Shown: positions 3,437 through 54,264 of the stretch, one piece after another | How the letters are laid out: each line of letters starts with the position of its first letter | Numbering within the stretch: position 1 is the first letter of the stretch | Source of the DNA: a phage | Assembly: GCA_020381345.1 (NCBI GenBank) | Contig: GCA_020381345.1_3636.1 | DNA length: 64,000 bases | Reading direction: 5' to 3' (one strand) | Position numbers and translations under genes: made by a program | The notes under the pieces: model-generated | The model's database searches: none | Seen by the model: only the letters and a program-made list of their open reading frames with translations | What the model was told of the DNA's origin: nothing

Positions 3437-3744
3437 TCGCTATTACGCCAACCGTTTTAGATTGGTATCGGCAACGCATAGCTCCTCCGCTGGCTATCTT
3501 CAAAGATGCGGAAGCAAAACAACGCCGGATCTCAATACATGAGATCATCAACCTTAACGCTGGAGGCACACCATACCGCCCAGGGCCTGGCCGTGAGATG
3601 GACAATACGTTAGCGATCCTGAAGATACGCCGTAAACGGTCCTCCCTTACGCTGGACTCCTTACACACAATGCAGTCTCCGTTCCAGGTGACCGGGAAAC
3701 GGATCGCCAGGTCCTGGACAAAGGCCAATGATCGGACCGTATAA
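3433..3744 (+). CDS. hypothetical protein (103 aa)
   Basis: ATG overlaps upstream stop as ATGA (translational coupling); RBS GGGGGTAAAAT. Confidence 0.5.
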   Translation: MIAITPTVLDWYRQRIAPPLAIFKDAEAKQRRISIHEIINLNAGGTPYRPGPGREMDNTLAILKIRRKRSSLTLDSLHTMQSPFQVTGKRIARSWTKANDRTV

Positions 3745-3775
3745 ATAAAAAGTGTTTTGGTACTGATTTTGGGGG

Positions 3776-3804
3776 TTGACTTGTTCGGCCCCTTTTGCTA
3801 TTCT
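3776..3804 (+). promoter_or_regulatory. sigma70-like promoter
   Basis: TTGACT, 17-nt spacer, TATTCT. Confidence 0.4.
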
Positions 3805-4705: not shown

Positions 4706-5125
4706 ATGAGCATTAAATCTAATAATCCGGCATATAGCTTTGATAACGCTTTTTGTCACGGTCCGGCGGCGAAAGGATTCGAAATCGATGGTAAACTAAT
4801 TATTGTCAATGTTGACGGGGAAGAGGTTGCAGTATATCCGGTGGCAGACGTAAAAAGCCGTTTACAATGCCGCATTGATGTTACCGCCTATCAGCTTGAT
4901 CCGGTCCGCATAGTTGCCCTGGTCCTGGAAGAAGAAATTAAAGCCATGCACCATAGCAACAGGTTTATTGGTGACGCACAGGATAATATGAAGGTATGCC
5001 GCCATAAAGTTAATGAAGTGCTTAAAGAATATGGCTTTAAAGATCTGATGATCAAACGTGAGGAAAAATTCCGCTACCGTAACGACCTGGCAAATCGAAT
5101 CTATGAAATATACGAATCATTATAA
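4706..5125 (+). CDS. hypothetical protein (139 aa)
   Basis: ORF with RBS AAGAGGTAAAAACACC-ATG; last plus-strand gene before the non-coding region. Confidence 0.55.
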   Translation: MSIKSNNPAYSFDNAFCHGPAAKGFEIDGKLIIVNVDGEEVAVYPVADVKSRLQCRIDVTAYQLDPVRIVALVLEEEIKAMHHSNRFIGDAQDNMKVCRHKVNEVLKEYGFKDLMIKREEKFRYRNDLANRIYEIYESL

Positions 5126-5143
5126 TTTCTTAACTAAACTATC

Positions 5144-5172
5144 AGGGGCTTTAAAAGGTCCCTTTCTTTTTG
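5144..5172 (+). terminator. putative rho-independent terminator
   Basis: Imperfect stem AGGGGC/GTCCCT followed by TTCTTTTTG. Confidence 0.45.
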
Positions 5173-5776
5173 TCTGTATTTCTCCTACCACAAACGGCCC
5201 CACCTGGCAAGTGGAATAATTGACTAGCCATCAATCCCACACACTGTACAAATATACATGTAAAATAGCTATTGCATAATCTTTCATTGTGTGGTAGCAG
5301 GGCCATTTTTACACGTTTTTCCTTCCAAAATTGCACGTAATGCAGCTATTGCACAAAATTTAACCTGATGCATATCTTCAGTGTCTTGTCAACAACTAAA
5401 AATCTTTATAAGTCATACACTTACACAACCACAAAAGCGTGTTCTACGTGAAAAATCGGGTATAACTATAGCCACTAAATTCCAGAATTCACGTAGCGTC
5501 ACCATTCTATAGTCTGCTAAGCATTTATTCCAACCATAGAATAACGGAATAGTCAATACCTGCATAAAATAATTATTCGTTTAAACTGCATAACATAAAT
5601 CAGCCAGGGTGTCAACATTTTTCGTAAACAGTCCGAAATTGTCACGGTAAGTTATCATAAACAGAGAAATCTTTAGTCGTCTAATGTTTACTGTACATTA
5701 CTATACTGACTGGAATCATTAGATGACTAAGAGAAAGATAAGAAACAATTAACAGTCTAATTATATTAACGATAAC

Positions 5777-6051
5777 AATAACAGCGGTTAAAGTCATGGC
5801 GCGACGGAGTCGCGACATAATAACACCGAGTAACCCTCACCCCCGTGAGCGTTGCGAATGTTATTATGCCATGACTAAATCATTTCAACACGTAACTATA
5901 GGCATAACAACATTCCCTCGGTGTTATTATGTCGCTAGTTATTATATAACTGTTAACAATAACGCCTCGGGAATAGTTCTGCCTGCACGATGTTTATAAC
6001 AGCAAGTTATGATCAACATTTCACAGATTATAATAACAGCGGTTAAAGTCA
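5777..6051. repeat. 20-bp direct repeat AATAACAGCGGTTAAAGTCA, two copies
   Basis: Identical 20-mers at 5777-5796 and 6032-6051. Confidence 0.7.
5812..5935. repeat. perfect 19-bp inverted repeat flanking an 86-bp loop
   Basis: GCGACATAATAACACCGAG (5812-5830) is the exact reverse complement of CTCGGTGTTATTATGTCGC (5917-5935). Confidence 0.7.
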
Positions 6052-6709
6052 GGCGTAGAAACAGTGGAAGTGTAAACAGTCAATCATGTAAATGATAAGT
6101 ATGTGAACAGTTATCCATGTAAACTATTAGACATGCAAACAATCAGGTGTGCAAAAGTGTCAAGGGTGTCACCAGTATGTCAGACAAGTTTTCCTCCTCT
6201 TTGTCAAGTGCTGCATGAAAAATTTACAAACTGGTATGGTAGCATTTTTGCGGCCCTGTTTACATTCAGTAATGTATGTATAATCCTTGTTGTGTGGGCG
6301 TTTAGACGTCTAGACGGTTGGAAGTCCACAGGTCAATATCTAATCTATCGGCTGCTAACTATATCCCACACAAATAGTAAGAAATATAATTGTTATGCGT
6401 GTAAACAGTAACTCATGTTATCAATCCCTGTATGGATCGCCAGTGGTGCGCATAATGGGTATTATGTTAAATTGCCAGTAATGATAACTATTCTCACAAT
6501 GATAGGTATTCTCATTCCCCCACACAAGATAGGTTGCAAATGTTGTGCCACTGTGTGAACGGCCTCACCTATTAATTTGCCTCACTGCCTCGATATTTGA
6601 GAATTATTATAAGAATGAGAAGTATTCCCATTTCGTCCGCCTGGCAGCACTCCTGTAGGTCAGGTCAAAATCGGGAGAGAACTGGACCTGTTCAGATATT
6701 TCTGGCTGG

Positions 6710-7894
6710 CTCTTCAGGTCTGTGTGGGAAAAGCCGACCCCTCCGGCGGCGGGGAGGTGGTCAATTAAAAAATTTACGGGGTATATGAAGCGCTCTTCAG
6801 GTAAGGCATGTATTATGGGATGAAACCCTCTTCAGGCAATGATATTTGTGGGTGTGATATTTGCTGGAAAGCCAGATATGACGGGACTCCCGGCGGGGCA
6901 GGGGTAGTACAGACAGGGAAAATATGGGGATGTAGTTGGGTGAATTGATCGGTCAGGTAGGGTATGGAATATGTTACAGGTATGTTAAATATGGAGGGTG
7001 AATATCTGTAGGATTTGTGTGTAAAATCAAAGACTTAAGTGGTGTTGTGGTATTTTCTATAAATAATTCAAGTTTAATAGGTAATATTTGTCCCTATCCA
7101 CTTTGTGTGGTAAACAAATTCAGATGAGATTGGTTTACAAGTGTATACATAATATACAAATTAAAGATACAAGAAACCCCCCTCCCCCTTCGGCTACCAT
7201 TCACCTTTTCCTCTGACTGGTACTTAAACACTTATTCAGACTCTTCAGGTTATCACCCATATATCATATGGCAGTGACTGGTGTCCTCCGGCCCCTCTTT
7301 CGTCACCCGTCCGCTTCGCCATGCTAATGCCATAGCCAAAGGTTCGGTTGTTCACCCTGTTCACTCAGGTGTATCTCCATACCCCTTCAAACCGAAGAGA
7401 ACAGAAAACCCGAATTACTCGGTAAAAGAAAAGAGAAGAACTTAATTTTATCAGGATAGGCAAGAATGTCAAGGCATGACTGCTCACTAAACAAGCAAAC
7501 AGTCATGTGTGGGAGGTAAGTGATTGTGGTTGTAGGAAATTTAGTTGAAAGATGTGTTATAGGTGCTTCCAGCACTTTAGCCGGGCAGCTAATTGTGTGT
7601 CAGTCCAGCGGTTCATCCTCTACTTCACTGAAATCAATGTTCATGGTCTCTTCCCAACCATCGATCTCAGCACAAGAGTGGAGTTCTTTAGGGTTTACTC
7701 CCAAAGCCTCAGCAACAGAGTCTATATTTAACACCTCTGGCAGGTATGATTCATCGAATTCAAGGTAAATCAGGCCACGAGTATTGTCAGCTCCACCAAA
7801 TAGTTCTATCTTCATGAAATCTCCTTCGGAAAATGAGTGTGAACAGGATTATACGTCCCAATGCGCAGGAATTATGCACGTTTGCCTCTTCAGG
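6710..7894 (+). repeat. five same-strand copies of CTCTTCAGG
   Basis: Exact 9-mer at 6710, 6793, 6828, 7241 and 7886; copies at 6710, 6828 and 7886 are followed by TGTGGG and the one at 6793 by TGGG; two are followed by CCGGCGG(C)GGG tracts. Confidence 0.6.
7600..7815 (-). CDS. hypothetical acidic protein (71 aa)
   Basis: ORF track; strongly acidic composition. Confidence 0.45.
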   Translation of the reverse strand: MKIELFGGADNTRGLIYLEFDESYLPEVLNIDSVAEALGVNPKELHSCAEIDGWEETMNIDFSEVEDEPLD

Positions 7895-7933
7895 CCATGC
7901 TTTAGCATGAGGAACCTGTGTGGGCTCGGTGCT

Positions 7934-8146
7934 TCATAGTCTACCACCCCTGAACTCTTCGTGCTCAGGCATAATAGAGAACCAGATATCTACGATGTCT
8001 TCCCACGTTAGGTCATTAGCCTCAGGATCTACCTGGAGCGAAGATGGAGAATCTTCAGAATCGAAGTTTTCCTCTTTCACTGGCTCAGCCAAGGGACATA
8101 TAGTCACTCCTTTTGATGTCTCTTCAGATGCATGTGTGTTGATCAT
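7934..8146 (-). CDS. hypothetical acidic protein (70 aa)
   Basis: C-terminal part of track ORF 7934..8347; ATG at 8144-8146 overlaps the upstream peptide stop as ATGA. Confidence 0.45.
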   Translation of the reverse strand: MINTHASEETSKGVTICPLAEPVKEENFDSEDSPSSLQVDPEANDLTWEDIVDIWFSIMPEHEEFRGGRL

Positions 8147-23261: not shown

Positions 23262-23426
23262 AGATACTCCGCATCACATTTAGGGCAATGCCAAATAAAA
23301 TCGTCCAGTGCCTTGCACCAACGAAGATTGCAACGACAACCACACTTGCAAATTTTATAAATACCTTTAGACATATTGTACCTCCTTAGTTTATAGCATG
23401 TTTAAGATATGTGTATCTTTCTACGA

Positions 23427-24446
23427 TCATTTACCACAGATCTCTTTGTATGCTGCTTCCACTATGCTAAACACTTCAGGTCTGTAGTGAAAGAATTCAG
23501 TGCTTCCACTAAATGCTTTAGAGAAGTTTATTTTATACTTATTGAAGGCTTCATGCACAGATTTTTCTACACTCAGTATGTTTTCAGTCGATCCGCCCCA
23601 TGTTTTTACTATGTGGAGATCATAAATACCTGCACCAGCCTTCTTGGATGCTCTTAATATCCTTCCCTTCCTCGCTTCTACATTGACGCTCACACCGATC
23701 TTCATAAGTGTTGGCGCTTCTAAGTTATCAACCATGAGGTAAAGCTTCCCATAGTTGTGAGATAAGAAACCGTTTTTGGCACATTTAGGGCATCCACGAC
23801 CAGACAGGTGGCAAGAAGGTGTCTGGGTGAAGTGATTTCCACAAGTGTTGCAGATTATCTCTACCTTATCTTCGCAAGTCATATAATCTATAAAAGAGTA
23901 GTCATATTTATCGCCATGGATTTCTTTGGCTCTTTCTATGAATTCAGGGCCTTTATTCCTTTTTGCTGCGCTAATGAGTTTACTACACTCAGGGCACCCT
24001 TGGCCTTTCAAATGGTTAGATGGGGATTGCAAGAACACTCCGTGCTCAGGGCATACAATTTTTACAGGAGTTTTATAGTTAACATATCCAACCTTAGAAT
24101 AATCATAGGTGTCACCGTGGATTTTTACAAATTTTTTGATAATATCACTAGAATCGTTTCTAAGCTTATTGCCTACTGGCACTCTACCACACTTAGGACA
24201 CCCACTACCGTCAAGGGTATGATGTCCAGCGATCTGCGTAAACTCACCATGAACAGGGCATACAATTACAACCTTACTTTTAGCAGTTTTATATACGGTT
24301 TTTGAATAGTCATATTTATCGCCATGTACTTCTCTAGCTCTTTTTGTAAATTCTTCAGTCGTAAGTTGTTTTCCTCTAGGCATCTTTGATCCCTCTTGGT
24401 TCTCATAGATTAGCCAAGTATGCCACATCCTTGTGGCTTCTGTCAA
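23427..24446 (-). CDS. free-standing endonuclease-like protein with three zinc-ribbon repeats and GIY-YIG-like C-terminal domain
   Basis: Three ~50-aa repeats HGDKYDYS..CPxHGxF..GxGCPKC; C-terminal GKLYLMVDN..MKIGVSVNVEARKGR; inserted between nrdD and nrdG; likely start at internal MPRGK. Confidence 0.55.
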   Translation of the reverse strand: MTEATRMWHTWLIYENQEGSKMPRGKQLTTEEFTKRAREVHGDKYDYSKTVYKTAKSKVVIVCPVHGEFTQIAGHHTLDGSGCPKCGRVPVGNKLRNDSSDIIKKFVKIHGDTYDYSKVGYVNYKTPVKIVCPEHGVFLQSPSNHLKGQGCPECSKLISAAKRNKGPEFIERAKEIHGDKYDYSFIDYMTCEDKVEIICNTCGNHFTQTPSCHLSGRGCPKCAKNGFLSHNYGKLYLMVDNLEAPTLMKIGVSVNVEARKGRILRASKKAGAGIYDLHIVKTWGGSTENILSVEKSVHEAFNKYKINFSKAFSGSTEFFHYRPEVFSIVEAAYKEICGK

Positions 24447-24449
24447 GTA

Positions 24450-25412
24450 TCAGCAACTACAACTTCCATAGTGCTTAACCCGTTCTATAACTTCCGCTTG
24501 CTTACCTTTATTGTAAGGACGGGAGTTAGGACTGGAAAGGTATCCAGACACACGTCGAATTACACTGATCGTTCCCTCTTCATGGTTTCCACACTCTGGA
24601 CATACAAAGCCTCTAGCTGTTGCACTGAACTCACCAGAGAAACCACACTTGAGACATTTATCCACAGGCTGGTTGATACCAAAATACATAATGTGTTTAT
24701 ATCCGAAATCAACAAGAGCTTCCAAAGCATCTAAGTTGTTTTTCAGATTTGGTGTCTCTACGTATCCGATGTTGCCACCAGAGGAGATCATAGCAAAACC
24801 TTCCTCATACTCCCACTTATCAAAAGGAGAGCTATTGATCCATACTGGCTGATGGAAACTGTTGGTGAGATATTCATGCTCGTGCTTCAACACTTCAGGA
24901 TATTCACGATCCAGACAGGTTGCAGCTTTATAGCATAGACTCTCAGAAGGGGTGCCGTACAAGCTAAACGCTAGTCTACTTTCCTTCTTGTATCTCTCAC
25001 AAGCATCTCTCATGTGCTGAAGTATTCCAAGAGCTAAAGCCTTGTCACCCTCCCTGCCCAAAATCTGACAGGTTTCATACACACCAATATACCCAATACT
25101 GATGGAAGCGTACCCGTCATAGAAGAGTTTATCAATACTCTCTTCAGGGTCCAGGCGAGCAAGAGCGCCTTCACACCACATGATAGGGTTCTGCCCTGCC
25201 TTTGTCCCTTTTAGACGATTAACCCTTACAAGGTGAGCCTCGTATGCAAGATCCAGGTATTCGTCAAGAACTGCAAAGAAATCAACACCTTCCGTCTTAG
25301 CTTTTGCCGCAATCATTGGCAAGTTAAGGCTAACAACACCCAAGTTGAATCTGCCAAGGTATTTCTCCTCGCCTGTTACAGGGTCGCTATATTTCGATAA
25401 GAAACTTCTACA
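24450..25412 (-). CDS. nrdD: anaerobic ribonucleoside-triphosphate reductase NrdD, exon 3 of 3
   Basis: Starts CRSFLSKY and ends with glycyl-radical motif RRVSGYL; the track prefix MDLRTTLNIM is intron read-through. Confidence 0.8.
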   Translation of the reverse strand, partial: CRSFLSKYSDPVTGEEKYLGRFNLGVVSLNLPMIAAKAKTEGVDFFAVLDEYLDLAYEAHLVRVNRLKGTKAGQNPIMWCEGALARLDPEESIDKLFYDGYASISIGYIGVYETCQILGREGDKALALGILQHMRDACERYKKESRLAFSLYGTPSESLCYKAATCLDREYPEVLKHEHEYLTNSFHQPVWINSSPFDKWEYEEGFAMISSGGNIGYVETPNLKNNLDALEALVDFGYKHIMYFGINQPVDKCLKCGFSGEFSATARGFVCPECGNHEEGTISVIRRVSGYLSSPNSRPYNKGKQAEVIERVKHYGSCSC

Positions 25413-26174
25413 CATTATGTTCAGGGTGGTTCGCAAGTCCACCCCCGCACCTTTACGTGCTGCTGCATGTTCCCATGCAGATCAGACTATATCTTCACAC
25501 TTAGTGTGTCTACCATTTCGAGTGTCATCGGCTTACACCCTACACCGCTACATTCATCACGGTTAGTCGTTAGGCATTTCGTAACAGAACTCGTAATCAT
25601 AGTTATTAGGCGCACCACGTTTCAGGATAGCAGATATTCTTTTTCTATCCACTCCTAAAACATCAGCACAACATCTCAGACTTTTAAAGTGGAAAACCTC
25701 ACCAGTTAATTTGTTGGTGGCTTTCACACCGTGGCATCTTGTGTAAAAAGCATAACAGTTGTTGTTGTATCCTTCTTGCGTATTGTCTGGGCAAGCTCCC
25801 CACTCAAGGTTGTATACACTGTTATCTTTCCTGTTGTCCCCTTTGTGCTTAACATAGGGTAAATTGTCTGGATTTGGTAAGAACGCTTCAGCAACAAGTC
25901 TGTGAACCCTTAGGCAAACAGTCTTTTTGTTCTTGCGTATCCTAACAAGACGGTAACCTGTGTTTATCTCTTCCCACGAATGAATAATTCTTTCATTTTC
26001 GTAGCGGGTGCAATAAACATTGCCCATCTCGTCAATTTCATAACCTTCAAAATCACGAATTTGTTTTCTCATTTCAGGACTCCTCTTGGTCAGGAGTTCT
26101 GTTACGTTTAGCACGGGATTGTCCGTTCTGGAGTTTCCCCGTTTAGATAGATTTTACATGAGCAGTTATAGTTT
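25413..26174 (-). mobile_element. group I intron (nrdD intron 2) carrying an HNH homing endonuclease ORF
   Basis: 762-bp insertion between in-frame exons; exon ends in U and intron ends in G; contains CTAAACGGGG and ACAATCCCGTGCTAAA elements and a 3' block GATATAGTCTGATCTGCATGGGAACATGCAGC. Confidence 0.7.
25563..26072 (-). CDS. HNH homing endonuclease (intron-encoded, about 169 aa)
   Basis: HNH region RVHRLVAEAF..KHKGDNRKDNSVYNLEWG; RBS AGGAG before internal ATG; frame differs from nrdD. Confidence 0.7.
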   Translation of the reverse strand: MRKQIRDFEGYEIDEMGNVYCTRYENERIIHSWEEINTGYRLVRIRKNKKTVCLRVHRLVAEAFLPNPDNLPYVKHKGDNRKDNSVYNLEWGACPDNTQEGYNNNCYAFYTRCHGVKATNKLTGEVFHFKSLRCCADVLGVDRKRISAILKRGAPNNYDYEFCYEMPND

Positions 26175-47611: not shown

Positions 47612-47962
47612 ATGAAAGATGGGGATAAGCTGCTATATCTTAAAGTCCCCCTTGAAATACTATCTATGTCAAAAGTTTTGAATGACACAACTGGGGAGGT
47701 TGTTGTTCTTGACTTGTATGACAAGATCGTATACTGCTACCTGCACAACTGGTATAAGCTTGGAGGAAATTCACGCTTCACACCAAGCACAAGGAAAATT
47801 GCAGCAGATGTTGGGATAAAGAAAACAAAAGCAGCAGCGTGCGTTAAAACTTTAGAATGTGCAGGAGTGGTTGAAACATCCACACAAGGGAGAGGTAAAA
47901 GATGCACATTTTCCAAAGTTTTGCCACCAGAAAAAGTTATTCGAATGTCAACAACTGGTTAG
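47612..47962 (+). CDS. putative DNA-binding protein (116 aa)
   Basis: HTH-like segment TRKIAADVGIKKTKAAACVKTLECAGVV; sits just upstream of the iteron array. Confidence 0.5.
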   Translation: MKDGDKLLYLKVPLEILSMSKVLNDTTGEVVVLDLYDKIVYCYLHNWYKLGGNSRFTPSTRKIAADVGIKKTKAAACVKTLECAGVVETSTQGRGKRCTFSKVLPPEKVIRMSTTG

Positions 47963-50574: not shown

Positions 50575-50704
50575 AGTTCTTTTTAATGTAGCTTACTTTA
50601 GCAGAGTAAATCTTCGGCAAGTGGCGGTAACCACTTTACCGATACCTCATAGTTAGTGGTGAGAACACTAGCTATTTTAAAAAGAATTTAAATATTAGTA
50701 TTTA

Positions 50705-51095: not shown

Positions 51096-51192
51096 GCTAG
51101 GTAAGCCCTTTGGCAAGGGCGAGGATTTTTAATCCTGAAAATAGACGAGGTAGTCGTTGAATACATAGGTGGTTCGATTCCATCACCTAGCA
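51096..51192 (+). tRNA. atypical tRNA-like element (97 nt), anticodon uncertain
   Basis: Acceptor GCTAGGT/ACCTAGC, D-arm GCCC/GGGC, T-arm GGTGG-TTCGATT-CCATC, but non-canonical anticodon arm, 29-nt extra arm, A at position 8, no CCA. Confidence 0.35.
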
Positions 51193-51199
51193 CCTTTTT

Positions 51200-53285: not shown

Positions 53286-54264
53286 TAAATGATAGTGGCT
53301 TCGTGCAGAAATGCACGTCGAATAACTTCGTTAATTGCTGGAAAATCCGATTGCTAAACGGACAATCAGCAGCTATAATTACCCTTCCGAACCTGTAGTA
53401 GGGAGATGTTTGAAATGAAAAATTTAGGCTTTTTAGGCTACAATCATTATTGTGCTACATACGATGGCAGAATTTACAGTCTGTATTCTAATAAATTCCT
53501 CCATCCTAATGTGCAGAAAAAGACTGGCTATGCTATGGTAACTTTGTGCGAGGACGGTAAAAAGTTCCAAGTGCTCGTTCACAGAGTGATTGCTATGACT
53601 TTTGTTGATAATGATAATCCCAGCGTGAAAACTCAAGTAAATCACCTTGATGGCAATAAGTTGAATAACGCCGCATGGAACCTTGAGTGGACAACACCTG
53701 AGGAAAACACACATCATGCTCATGAAATGGGACTTAAAAAGGACTATGTCAATAAATACAGGTCCCTAGATGATGCCACTGCTCTTGAAATATGTAGACT
53801 GTTAGAGCAAGGTGCAAGGGTAAAAGACATTTGTGAAATGTTTGGTGTCAATCAACCACTTGTAAGTGGTATAAAGAATGGCTCAGTATACCCAGATATT
53901 TCTAAAGAGTTTAACTTTAGAAAAGTGCCAACCTCTAATAGGATAAGTGAGCACAAGATAATAGGTATCTGCGAGGATCTTAGTGATAGGGTTTTGTGTG
54001 TAAATAAAATAGCTAAGAAGTGGGGCGTAAGTTTTAGTGTTGTTAAAGGAATAAAAGACCGTAAGACTTACACCTATATTTCAAACAATTACGATTGGTA
54101 ATGTAGTTCAACGACTATCCCGAGAGGGAGTAGGGCGCAAGCTTATGGCGCTCGAAAAGCGAAGCACCCTGAGATGGGTGGTGATATAGTCTACTCTGCA
54201 TGGTAACATGCAGCGGCACGTAATGGTGCGGAGGGTGGTGTTGCGACCACCTTTGAATATAAGG
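53286..54264 (+). mobile_element. group I intron in terL carrying an HNH homing endonuclease ORF; boundaries approximate
   Basis: About 980 bp between the ATPase and nuclease halves; contains CTAAACGGACAATC and a 3' block nearly identical to nrdD intron 2. Confidence 0.65.
53406..54101 (+). CDS. HNH homing endonuclease (intron-encoded, 231 aa)
   Basis: HNH motif VLVHRVIAMTF..VNHLDGNKLNNAAWNLEW; own RBS GGGAG. Confidence 0.7.
   Translation: MFEMKNLGFLGYNHYCATYDGRIYSLYSNKFLHPNVQKKTGYAMVTLCEDGKKFQVLVHRVIAMTFVDNDNPSVKTQVNHLDGNKLNNAAWNLEWTTPEENTHHAHEMGLKKDYVNKYRSLDDATALEICRLLEQGARVKDICEMFGVNQPLVSGIKNGSVYPDISKEFNFRKVPTSNRISEHKIIGICEDLSDRVLCVNKIAKKWGVSFSVVKGIKDRKTYTYISNNYDW

Follow-up and report, generated by a model that had tools for sequence, protein, structure and literature searches.

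Positions 5777-6051 of the window, the whole 64,000-nt stretch of phage DNA that was analysed in the present study, hold a multi-hairpin element for which selection is shown to act on the fold and not on most of the sequence. The element belongs to a family located beside the terminal repeat of Vequintavirinae and Stephanstirmvirinae, and this family appears to be undescribed. Herein, we propose, tentatively and with somewhat less than even confidence, that it is a cis-acting DNA element that folds in single-stranded form during end maturation, where it would give a fold-back or priming signal by which the terminal repeat is regenerated or the genome packaged.

Results

Phage and genomic context

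The window comes from a Vequintavirus, an rV5-like E. coli myovirus; approximately 120 phage records match it, and its core genes are 97-98% identical to those of phage FFH2. The element is located within a gene-free stretch of ~2.4 kb, between rightward genes that end at 5125 and leftward genes that start near 7600, and terminator-like hairpins bound this stretch at 5144-5163 (+) and 7422-7410 (-). The same stretch is the "non-coding" box reported for rV5 between genes 163 and 164, which belong to convergent units, without an assigned function or listed promoters (PMC3606486). The ORF at 5796-5999 is considered non-coding because it is not conserved, the relatives having a stop after nine codons. 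Pfam and PHROG searches gave no function for the proteins flanking the element, and no function assigned to its region was found in the literature.

Several other features were observed in the surroundings of the element. A near-consensus sigma-70 promoter (TTGACA-16-TAAAAT with TG) at 7472-7445 (-), aimed at the terminal repeat, is located downstream of the last leftward gene and is absent from the rV5 promoter list; the terminator-like hairpin at 7422-7410 (-) follows it within ~25 nt. In the gene-free stretch just outside the terminal repeat, the GC skew is +0.6 at 6800-7100 and then -0.44 at 7175-7325, with a GC content of 0.27 to 0.53 across these intervals, and G-rich repeats such as CGGCGGGGAGGTGGT are found at 6747 and 6891. 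Approximately 50 bp to the left of the element, a block shared without any difference by the window, FFH2 and PDX contains a 22-bp imperfect hairpin (5673-5694/5709-5730), followed on the bottom strand by a U-rich run.

Repeats and fold

The repeats described in the sequence-only reading of this DNA were confirmed, and both the inverted and the direct repeats are real and non-random. The inverted repeat is perfect over 19 bp, with GCGACATAATAACACCGAG at 5812-5830 and CTCGGTGTTATTATGTCGC at 5917-5935 being 100% complementary and 86 nt apart, and the 20-mer AATAACAGCGGTTAAAGTCA is present exactly at both 5777-5796 and 6032-6051, lengthening to 26 nt at 92%. Two hairpins were also observed inside the 86-nt loop, one of 15 bp with one mismatch (5856-5870/5901-5915) and one of the form CTCAC-CCCC-GTGAG (5836-5849). 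When up to 3 mismatches were allowed, the arm and 20-mer patterns each matched their two known sites and no others in the 64 kb; 0.02 matches are expected from shuffles, and 0/100 shuffles reached 2. Moreover, 5812-5830/5917-5935 is the sole perfect inverted repeat of at least 15 bp with arms within 300 bp in the whole window, and the 145-nt core is much more stably folded than its shuffles, with z-scores of -8.5 (top strand) and -7.4 (bottom strand).

From left to right, the left copy of the direct repeat (5777-5796) abuts a conserved island, CATGGCGCGAC, and is followed by the hairpin H1 (GCGAC-GGA-GTCGC; 5801-5813, -), which is identical in all Vequintavirus alleles and abuts the left arm of the closing stem P1. 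This arm (5812-5830, -) has a conserved proximal part, GACATAATA, and an allele-specific distal part, ACACCGAG. P1 encloses the hairpin P2 (AAC-C-CTCAC-CCCC-GTGAG-C-GTT; 5832-5853, -) and the 15-bp hairpin P3 (GAATGTTATTATGCC/GGCATAACAACATTC; 5856-5915, -), and it is closed by the right arm (5917-5935, -), the exact reverse complement of the left one. A spacer at 5936-6031, variable in length (28-121 bp) and sequence in relatives, separates the fold from the right copy of the direct repeat (6032-6051), which is identical to the left copy. The single mismatch of P3 reads A·C in the top strand but G·U in the bottom one. In the window, the direct repeat and the P1 arm have a 17-nt motif in common, and the arm motif recurs nearby as direct copies (repeat family D2). 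P1 has as its conserved core an A/T hexamer similar to a -10 box (TATTAT/ATAATA), without an evident -35-like partner.

Comparison with the common Vequintavirus allele

One nearly invariant common allele is present in ~118 relatives (118 records by BLAST, 20 loci read), conserved at 98-100% from the left repeat through the right arm. These relatives align to the window up to 5848 and from ~6070-6178, and the part between is unaligned; all sampled Vequintavirus sequences keep the same layout there in different letters. The common allele has the flanking 20-mer ATGCAAACGAATGGCATGGC at the same place as AATAACAGCGGTTAAAGTCA in the window, the arms GACATAATATAAAAGCAG/CTGCTTTTATATTATGTC, and ATCAC-CCCC-GTGAT as P2; its long inner hairpin also differs, the P3 sequence of the window being unrelated to it. 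The two alleles match in two islands only, CATGGCGCGACGGAGTCGCGACATAATA and GTAACC-TCACCCCCGTGA. All differences in the left arm are mirrored in the right arm, P2 differs by one compensated pair (C to A matched by G to T), and the same shape is obtained for both alleles, with z from -7.4 to -9.7. Judged from these alignments, the window phage carries a unique allele with largely replaced sequence and all pairing kept. That the sequence of the stems has been largely replaced while every base pair was kept indicates that the fold, rather than the sequence, matters. The window allele is rare and was probably acquired by recombination from an unsampled lineage, with a structure-preserving replacement of the stems.

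Searches for this allele in other collections are consistent with its rarity. Neither 50,697 phage records nor E. coli genomes gave a blastn match to 5840-6075, and the exact 19- and 20-mers of the window were absent from IMG/VR. In the GTDB genomes (596 Gb), a single 20-mer match was observed, inside a coding region of an unrelated MAG, which is about the chance level. A search for further alleles through the conserved island in IMG/VR and metagenomes returned only the common allele.

The sequence-only reading had held that presence in all relatives with no variation would point to a simple structural spacer. This is nearly true of the common allele; however, the window allele and the elements of other genera vary while preserving the structure, and such variation suggests a function rather than a passive spacer.

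A protein covarying with the allele swap was sought across the 64 kb by comparison with FFH2, and none was found. The window-specific segments consist of an accessory ORF that is also present in common-allele phages and of probable homing-endonuclease or intron insertions, and the winged-helix (wHTH) "replication initiation protein" encoded at 47612-47962 (+) is 98% identical to the FFH2 protein. This 116-aa product, so named in FFH2, has sub-threshold matches to HTH_36 and DUF6945 (winged-helix); its gene adjoins the point of divergent transcription at ~46.5 kb, and it is a candidate iteron-binding protein. The accessory ORF (103 aa) is located in a 349-bp segment, 3445-3792, that is absent from FFH2 and PDX, is present at an identity of at least 95% in 36 other Vequintaviruses, and has distant counterparts in phages of Cronobacter, Enterobacter and Pectobacterium; its distribution, which is uncorrelated with the allele of the element, suggests an accessory gene that comes and goes. 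Three further segments of 0.8-1 kb absent from FFH2, at 23387-24418, 25405-26174 and 53286-54264, contain ORFs of 339, 183 and 231 aa in the regions of the anaerobic ribonucleotide reductase and the large terminase, and these segments probably represent introns or homing endonucleases, a kind of insertion already described in the rV5 terminase. In addition, ARAGORN predicted a 99-nt tRNA-like gene with a four-base anticodon (atcc) at 51096-51194, within the tRNA cluster, and at 50579-50704 the window differs from FFH2, which has a tRNA-Tyr there.

The direct repeat exceeds chance in three Vequintavirinae alleles, at 20, 20 and 15 nt compared with shuffle maxima of 10-13. Its sequence differs in each of the three, being a 15-mer in A73/LTH01, and the flanking direct repeat is absent in Stephanstirmvirinae. 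The left copy always abuts the GGCGCGAC island, the repeat of the common allele resembles the downstream iterons (CATGCAAAC), and in A73 the right copy is probably inside the terminal repeat. The direct repeat could represent a pair of protein sites whose identity is maintained through gene conversion, or a template-switching substrate.

Homologous elements and covariation

The phAPEC8-like phages and two unclassified Vequintavirinae, A73 and LTH01, also have the 139-aa gene that precedes the element (4706-5125), and in these phages an equivalent fold is located downstream of it. More alleles were observed in phi92, PD06, Citrobacter phage Tr1, a Klebsiella phage and PsgM04F. The fold of the family comprises H1 and a perfect closing stem of 15-19 bp around at least two hairpins. 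The arms were compared directly; a MAFFT/RNAalifold alignment of four Vequintavirinae alleles misaligned them. Each of the six versions of P1 (GCGACATAATAACACCGAG, GACATAATATAAAAGCAG, GACACTATAAAACGAG, GCTAATAATAAGCCA, GCTAATAATAACGCA and GCTAATAATACCGCA) is perfectly complementary over 15-19 bp, so that all of the 1-8 differences between alleles are mirrored in the opposite arm, and P1 has no wobble pair in any allele.

In the alignment of six Stephanstirmvirinae sequences, 96% of cells pair, and 11 of the 54 pairs have changed on both sides, a number reached by 0/500 shuffles; slid controls gave at most 3. P1, the inner hairpins and H1 all contain such doubly changed pairs, with covariation in five helices (in helix 5, 3 pairs changed on both sides), and the H1 equivalent of these phages has a CCGGACA loop. 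A covariance model built from these six sequences alone matched the window at 5795-5928 (-) with 33.7 bits and an E of 1.3e-5, the sole match in the window, and aligned the UCCG loop of H1, which is conserved across the subfamilies; on the common allele (FFH2), the match was weak (E 0.16) and on the opposite strand. The covariation and the covariance-model match together indicate that the element belongs to a structure-constrained family spanning two phage subfamilies, and the fold and the compensatory stem variation of this family were both observed in the window, where its position by the terminal repeat is given by homology. No match at E<=1 was found in Rfam 15 for positions 5000-8000 of the window or for four related loci.

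Strand asymmetry of the fold

The folding is not equivalent on the two strands. For the bottom strand (in the orientation of the window), the Stephanstirmvirinae alignment has seven pair positions with G·U compared with one that is A·C, and the same seven are A·C mismatches on the top strand; at three of these seven wobble positions, G·U is present in all six sequences. There are 5-6 wobble pairs on the bottom strand compared with 0-2 on the top strand, and RNA folding of the bottom strand is better by 16-22 kcal/mol in Stephanstirmvirinae and by ~9 kcal/mol in the window, where the P3 mismatch obeys the same bottom-strand rule. In the common Vequintavirus allele, the wobbles are even (2 compared with 2), so that the asymmetry is clear in Stephanstirmvirinae and weak in Vequintavirus. 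A wobble asymmetry of one strand suggests that the element functions when single-stranded, as DNA or as RNA, and argues against a symmetric cruciform or pure duplex binding.

Position beside the terminal repeat

The YN3 record has an exact 458-bp repeat at both ends, which maps to 6183-6641 of the window, and terminal redundancies of 458 bp have been described in the Vequintaviruses EdH4 and HdK5 (Korf 2019, PMC6563267). From the homology of these end repeats, we infer that the window holds a concatemer junction, in which the element (5777-6051) is followed by iterons (6071-6175) and by one copy of the direct terminal repeat (6183-6641); by this comparison, the chromosome of the window phage would start at 6183 and end at 6641. 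The terminal repeat is conserved at 95-99% among relatives. The iterons, with a period of ~16 bp (TGTAAACAGT / TGTGAACAGT / ATGCAAACAAT; family D1), vary more than any other part of the region, their copy number being 1-9 in the relatives. A 17-mer, AATGATAAnnATTCTCA, is present three times inside the terminal repeat (6480-6496, 6498-6514 and 6614-6630), and near-identical copies are found in phi92 at 269, 327, 1208 and 1403, in the terminal repeat and upstream of the element; conserved across two subfamilies, it is a candidate protein recognition motif.

Inward of the right-hand terminal repeat, the element is always found at a distance of 150-330 bp, in the other genera as well. In phi92, direct terminal repeats of 343 bp, identical at both ends, are annotated, and the element ends 252 bp before the right-hand one. 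The phAPEC8-like phage Schickermooser has a 328-bp repeat (PMC6563267), and its element is located ~200 bp before this repeat, if the repeat is terminal in the record. In the window, 247 bp separate the right arm from 6183, compared with 154-330 bp in 21 Vequintavirus loci, and H1 is always on the side away from the terminal repeat. Circular permutation or headful packaging has been ascribed to such genomes in the rV5 paper (PMC3606486) and in one recent paper, and these descriptions conflict with the records that have fixed repeats. If permuted or headful packaging were true of the window phage, the case for a role in end processing would weaken.

Discussion

Herein, we propose a sequence of events to describe how the element might act at the concatemer junction, with the order direct repeat, H1, P1 enclosing P2 and P3, spacer, second direct repeat, iterons and ~458-bp terminal repeat. 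We infer that a nick would be made at the outer edge of the terminal repeat and that synthesis from this nick would run inward. The bottom strand would then be displaced, the terminal repeat first, the iterons next and the element last, and the strand displaced in this manner would be the same strand that the wobble pattern picks out. Once displaced, the bottom strand could fold, with P1 acting as a fold-back primer; alternatively, the fold might recruit a primase, a helicase or RNA polymerase, as single-strand initiation signals do. In either case, the displaced terminal repeat would be turned into duplex DNA, so that each genome cut from the concatemer would receive its own repeat. H1, the direct repeats (20-mers) and the iterons may serve as recognition sites for nicking or packaging proteins.

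The main rival is a structured non-coding RNA of the bottom strand, transcribed inward from the terminal-repeat side, whose functional parts would be the closing helix, the multi-way junction and the conserved loops, and which could have a role in packaging, regulation or anti-defence; we consider it unlikely, but worth serious attention. Covariation in five helices, very low folding z-scores, G·U pairs conserved on one strand only and loop motifs kept across subfamilies (UCCG in H1) are consistent with an RNA, since conserved multi-helix junctions and wobble pairs are also typical of functional RNAs, and the strong sigma-70-like promoter at 7472-7445 (-) is aimed at the region. However, a terminator-like hairpin stands directly downstream of this promoter, and a transcript from 7472 would, in the linear DNA of the virion, end at the left terminus without having reached the element. 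There is no conserved promoter in reach and no intrinsic terminator after the fold, the promoter and terminator scans gave no excess over shuffles in three lineages, and no Rfam family was matched. The six P1 alleles contain Watson-Crick pairs only, an unusual state for an RNA stem of 15-19 bp, and the P1 arm motif recurs as direct copies; on these several grounds, DNA is preferred to RNA. The small RNA gene suggested by the sequence-only reading retains some probability, since the bottom-strand wobbles favour a single-stranded form, but no promoter, terminator or Rfam match was found for it. Somewhat less probable than an RNA is a cluster of binding sites in duplex DNA, such as an origin or a terminase pac-type site, in which the inverted repeat would reflect symmetric binding and not folding. 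The motif ATAATAACA, with 4 exact and ~3 degenerate copies within 220 bp compared with 0.9 expected in 64 kb, speaks for binding sites, as do the 17-nt motif common to direct repeat and arm, the further copies of the arm motif that the Klebsiella and Tr1 phages have in the same direction, the adjoining iteron array and the small wHTH "replication initiation protein" that the phage encodes, and a site by the terminal repeat would suit a packaging signal. Yet the distal halves of the arms are perfectly complementary to each other and unlike the other copies of the motif, and the inner hairpins and H1 covary independently. In addition, a one-strand wobble asymmetry would be unexpected in duplex binding, the allele swap has no divergent DNA-binding gene to accompany it within 64 kb, and the GC content is only mildly low (0.33-0.41). 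The recombination site named in the sequence-only reading was loosely right, in that a DNA-processing site beside a direct terminal repeat is most likely.

Two other explanations have little in their favour. A transcription terminator or insulator separating the two convergent units would fit the location between them, and in phages Alma and Murica the inner hairpin of the common allele with a T-run is annotated as a terminator; this T-run, however, belongs to stem P1, terminator-like hairpins are already present right after the flanking genes (5144-5163 and 7422-7410), and the scan found none in 5777-6051, the stems of the window allele (P1, P2, P3 and H1) all lacking a T-run after them. Such a function, which would also leave the conserved H1, the junction and the fixed position by the terminal repeat unexplained, is very improbable. 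The miniature inverted-repeat transposable element with a 20-bp target duplication, also suggested from the sequence, resembles the locus superficially in its layout, with an inverted repeat inside and a direct repeat outside. The direct repeats are nonetheless not adjacent to the arms, being 15 bp away on the left and 96 bp on the right, and at one fixed position the alleles have different versions of the left "target" copy. The element is single-copy in the window, with no copies in the phage, E. coli and IMG/VR collections, and its homologues have conserved internal islands. The comparison with empty sites and the search for the element elsewhere showed the same locus occupied by a homologous element in all relatives and in two other genera. 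An insertion element was therefore rejected on the basis of the distant direct repeats, the single copy and the lack of empty sites, and we give it almost no weight.

The preferred reading, a DNA signal folding on a single strand, can be compared with several known systems. The complementary-strand origins of G4 and M13, the primosome assembly site of phiX174 and Frpo of the F plasmid are multi-hairpin folds of one strand in which G·T is tolerated. Single-strand initiation signals and ssDNA promoters of this kind start priming on displaced or single-stranded DNA and belong to ssDNA phages and conjugative plasmids. By analogy, the element would resemble them in its multi-hairpin, one-strand fold and in the -10-like core of P1. 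The pRNA of phi29 is encoded near the genome end, has a defined promoter and serves a protein-primed phage with a terminase-less packaging motor. The element is like pRNA in having a closing helix, a multi-way junction and hairpins no more than a few hundred bp from the chromosome end, with the structure kept as the sequence diverges strongly, and unlike it in the absence of a promoter or Rfam match and in belonging to a phage whose large terminase is of the classical kind. Origins of the iteron type (lambda ori, P1, R6K) combine direct repeats and initiator-bound iterons with an AT-rich unwinding element. The direct repeats and iterons by an inverted repeat, and a small HTH "initiator-like" phage protein, are reminiscent of such origins, whereas the structure-preserving covariation, the one-strand wobbles and the position fixed by the terminal repeat set the element apart; at its GC of 0.33-0.41 there is no sharp AT-rich block and no marked unwinding element.

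The closest parallel in mechanism is found in T7 and T3. Phages with short terminal repeats have one repeat per concatemer junction, which must be copied before or during cutting. In the models for T7, the copy arises by displacement of a strand or by synthesis that a primase initiates, and an intermediate with a hairpin that includes the repeat has been detected (PMC4281155); the junction signals and hairpin intermediate of T7/T3 go back to Chung & Hinkle 1990 and Molineux 2006, both as cited in PMC4281155. As in T7/T3, the element is in the non-coding flank of a short direct terminal repeat with adjoining arrays of short repeats, the repeat must be regenerated when concatemers are cut, and fold-back or primase-initiated copying has been proposed. 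When a long inverted repeat was looked for at the T7 right end, only imperfect ones of 10-12 nt were found. Since T7 has no comparable long inverted repeat by its terminal repeat, the link to T7 is a mechanistic analogy and not homology. The present phages also differ from T7 in being large myoviruses with different terminase and replication proteins, without sequence or structural homology.

The duplication of the terminal repeat during packaging has only been modelled even for T7, and it is unstudied in large myoviruses. It is possible, though we hold it as a doubtful proposition, that rV5-like and phi92-like myoviruses share an undescribed single-strand device, either a fold-back or priming DNA or a packaging-linked RNA, that enables them to regenerate their terminal repeats from concatemers. 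If this is true, the window phage would be a natural "stem-swap" mutant, indicating that only the fold and the islands (CATGGCGCGACGGAGTCGCGACATAATA and TCACCCCCGTGA) are needed. The covariation, the fixed position and the natural allelic variants offer a concrete, mutable target for fold-back and priming models, and the long-noted "non-coding box" of rV5 is given a likely role. Minimal cis signals of this type matter for engineering and rebooting therapeutic phages and for transducing vectors. Moreover, many Vequintavirus records that are called circularly permuted may have fixed ends in the region corresponding to 6183-6641.
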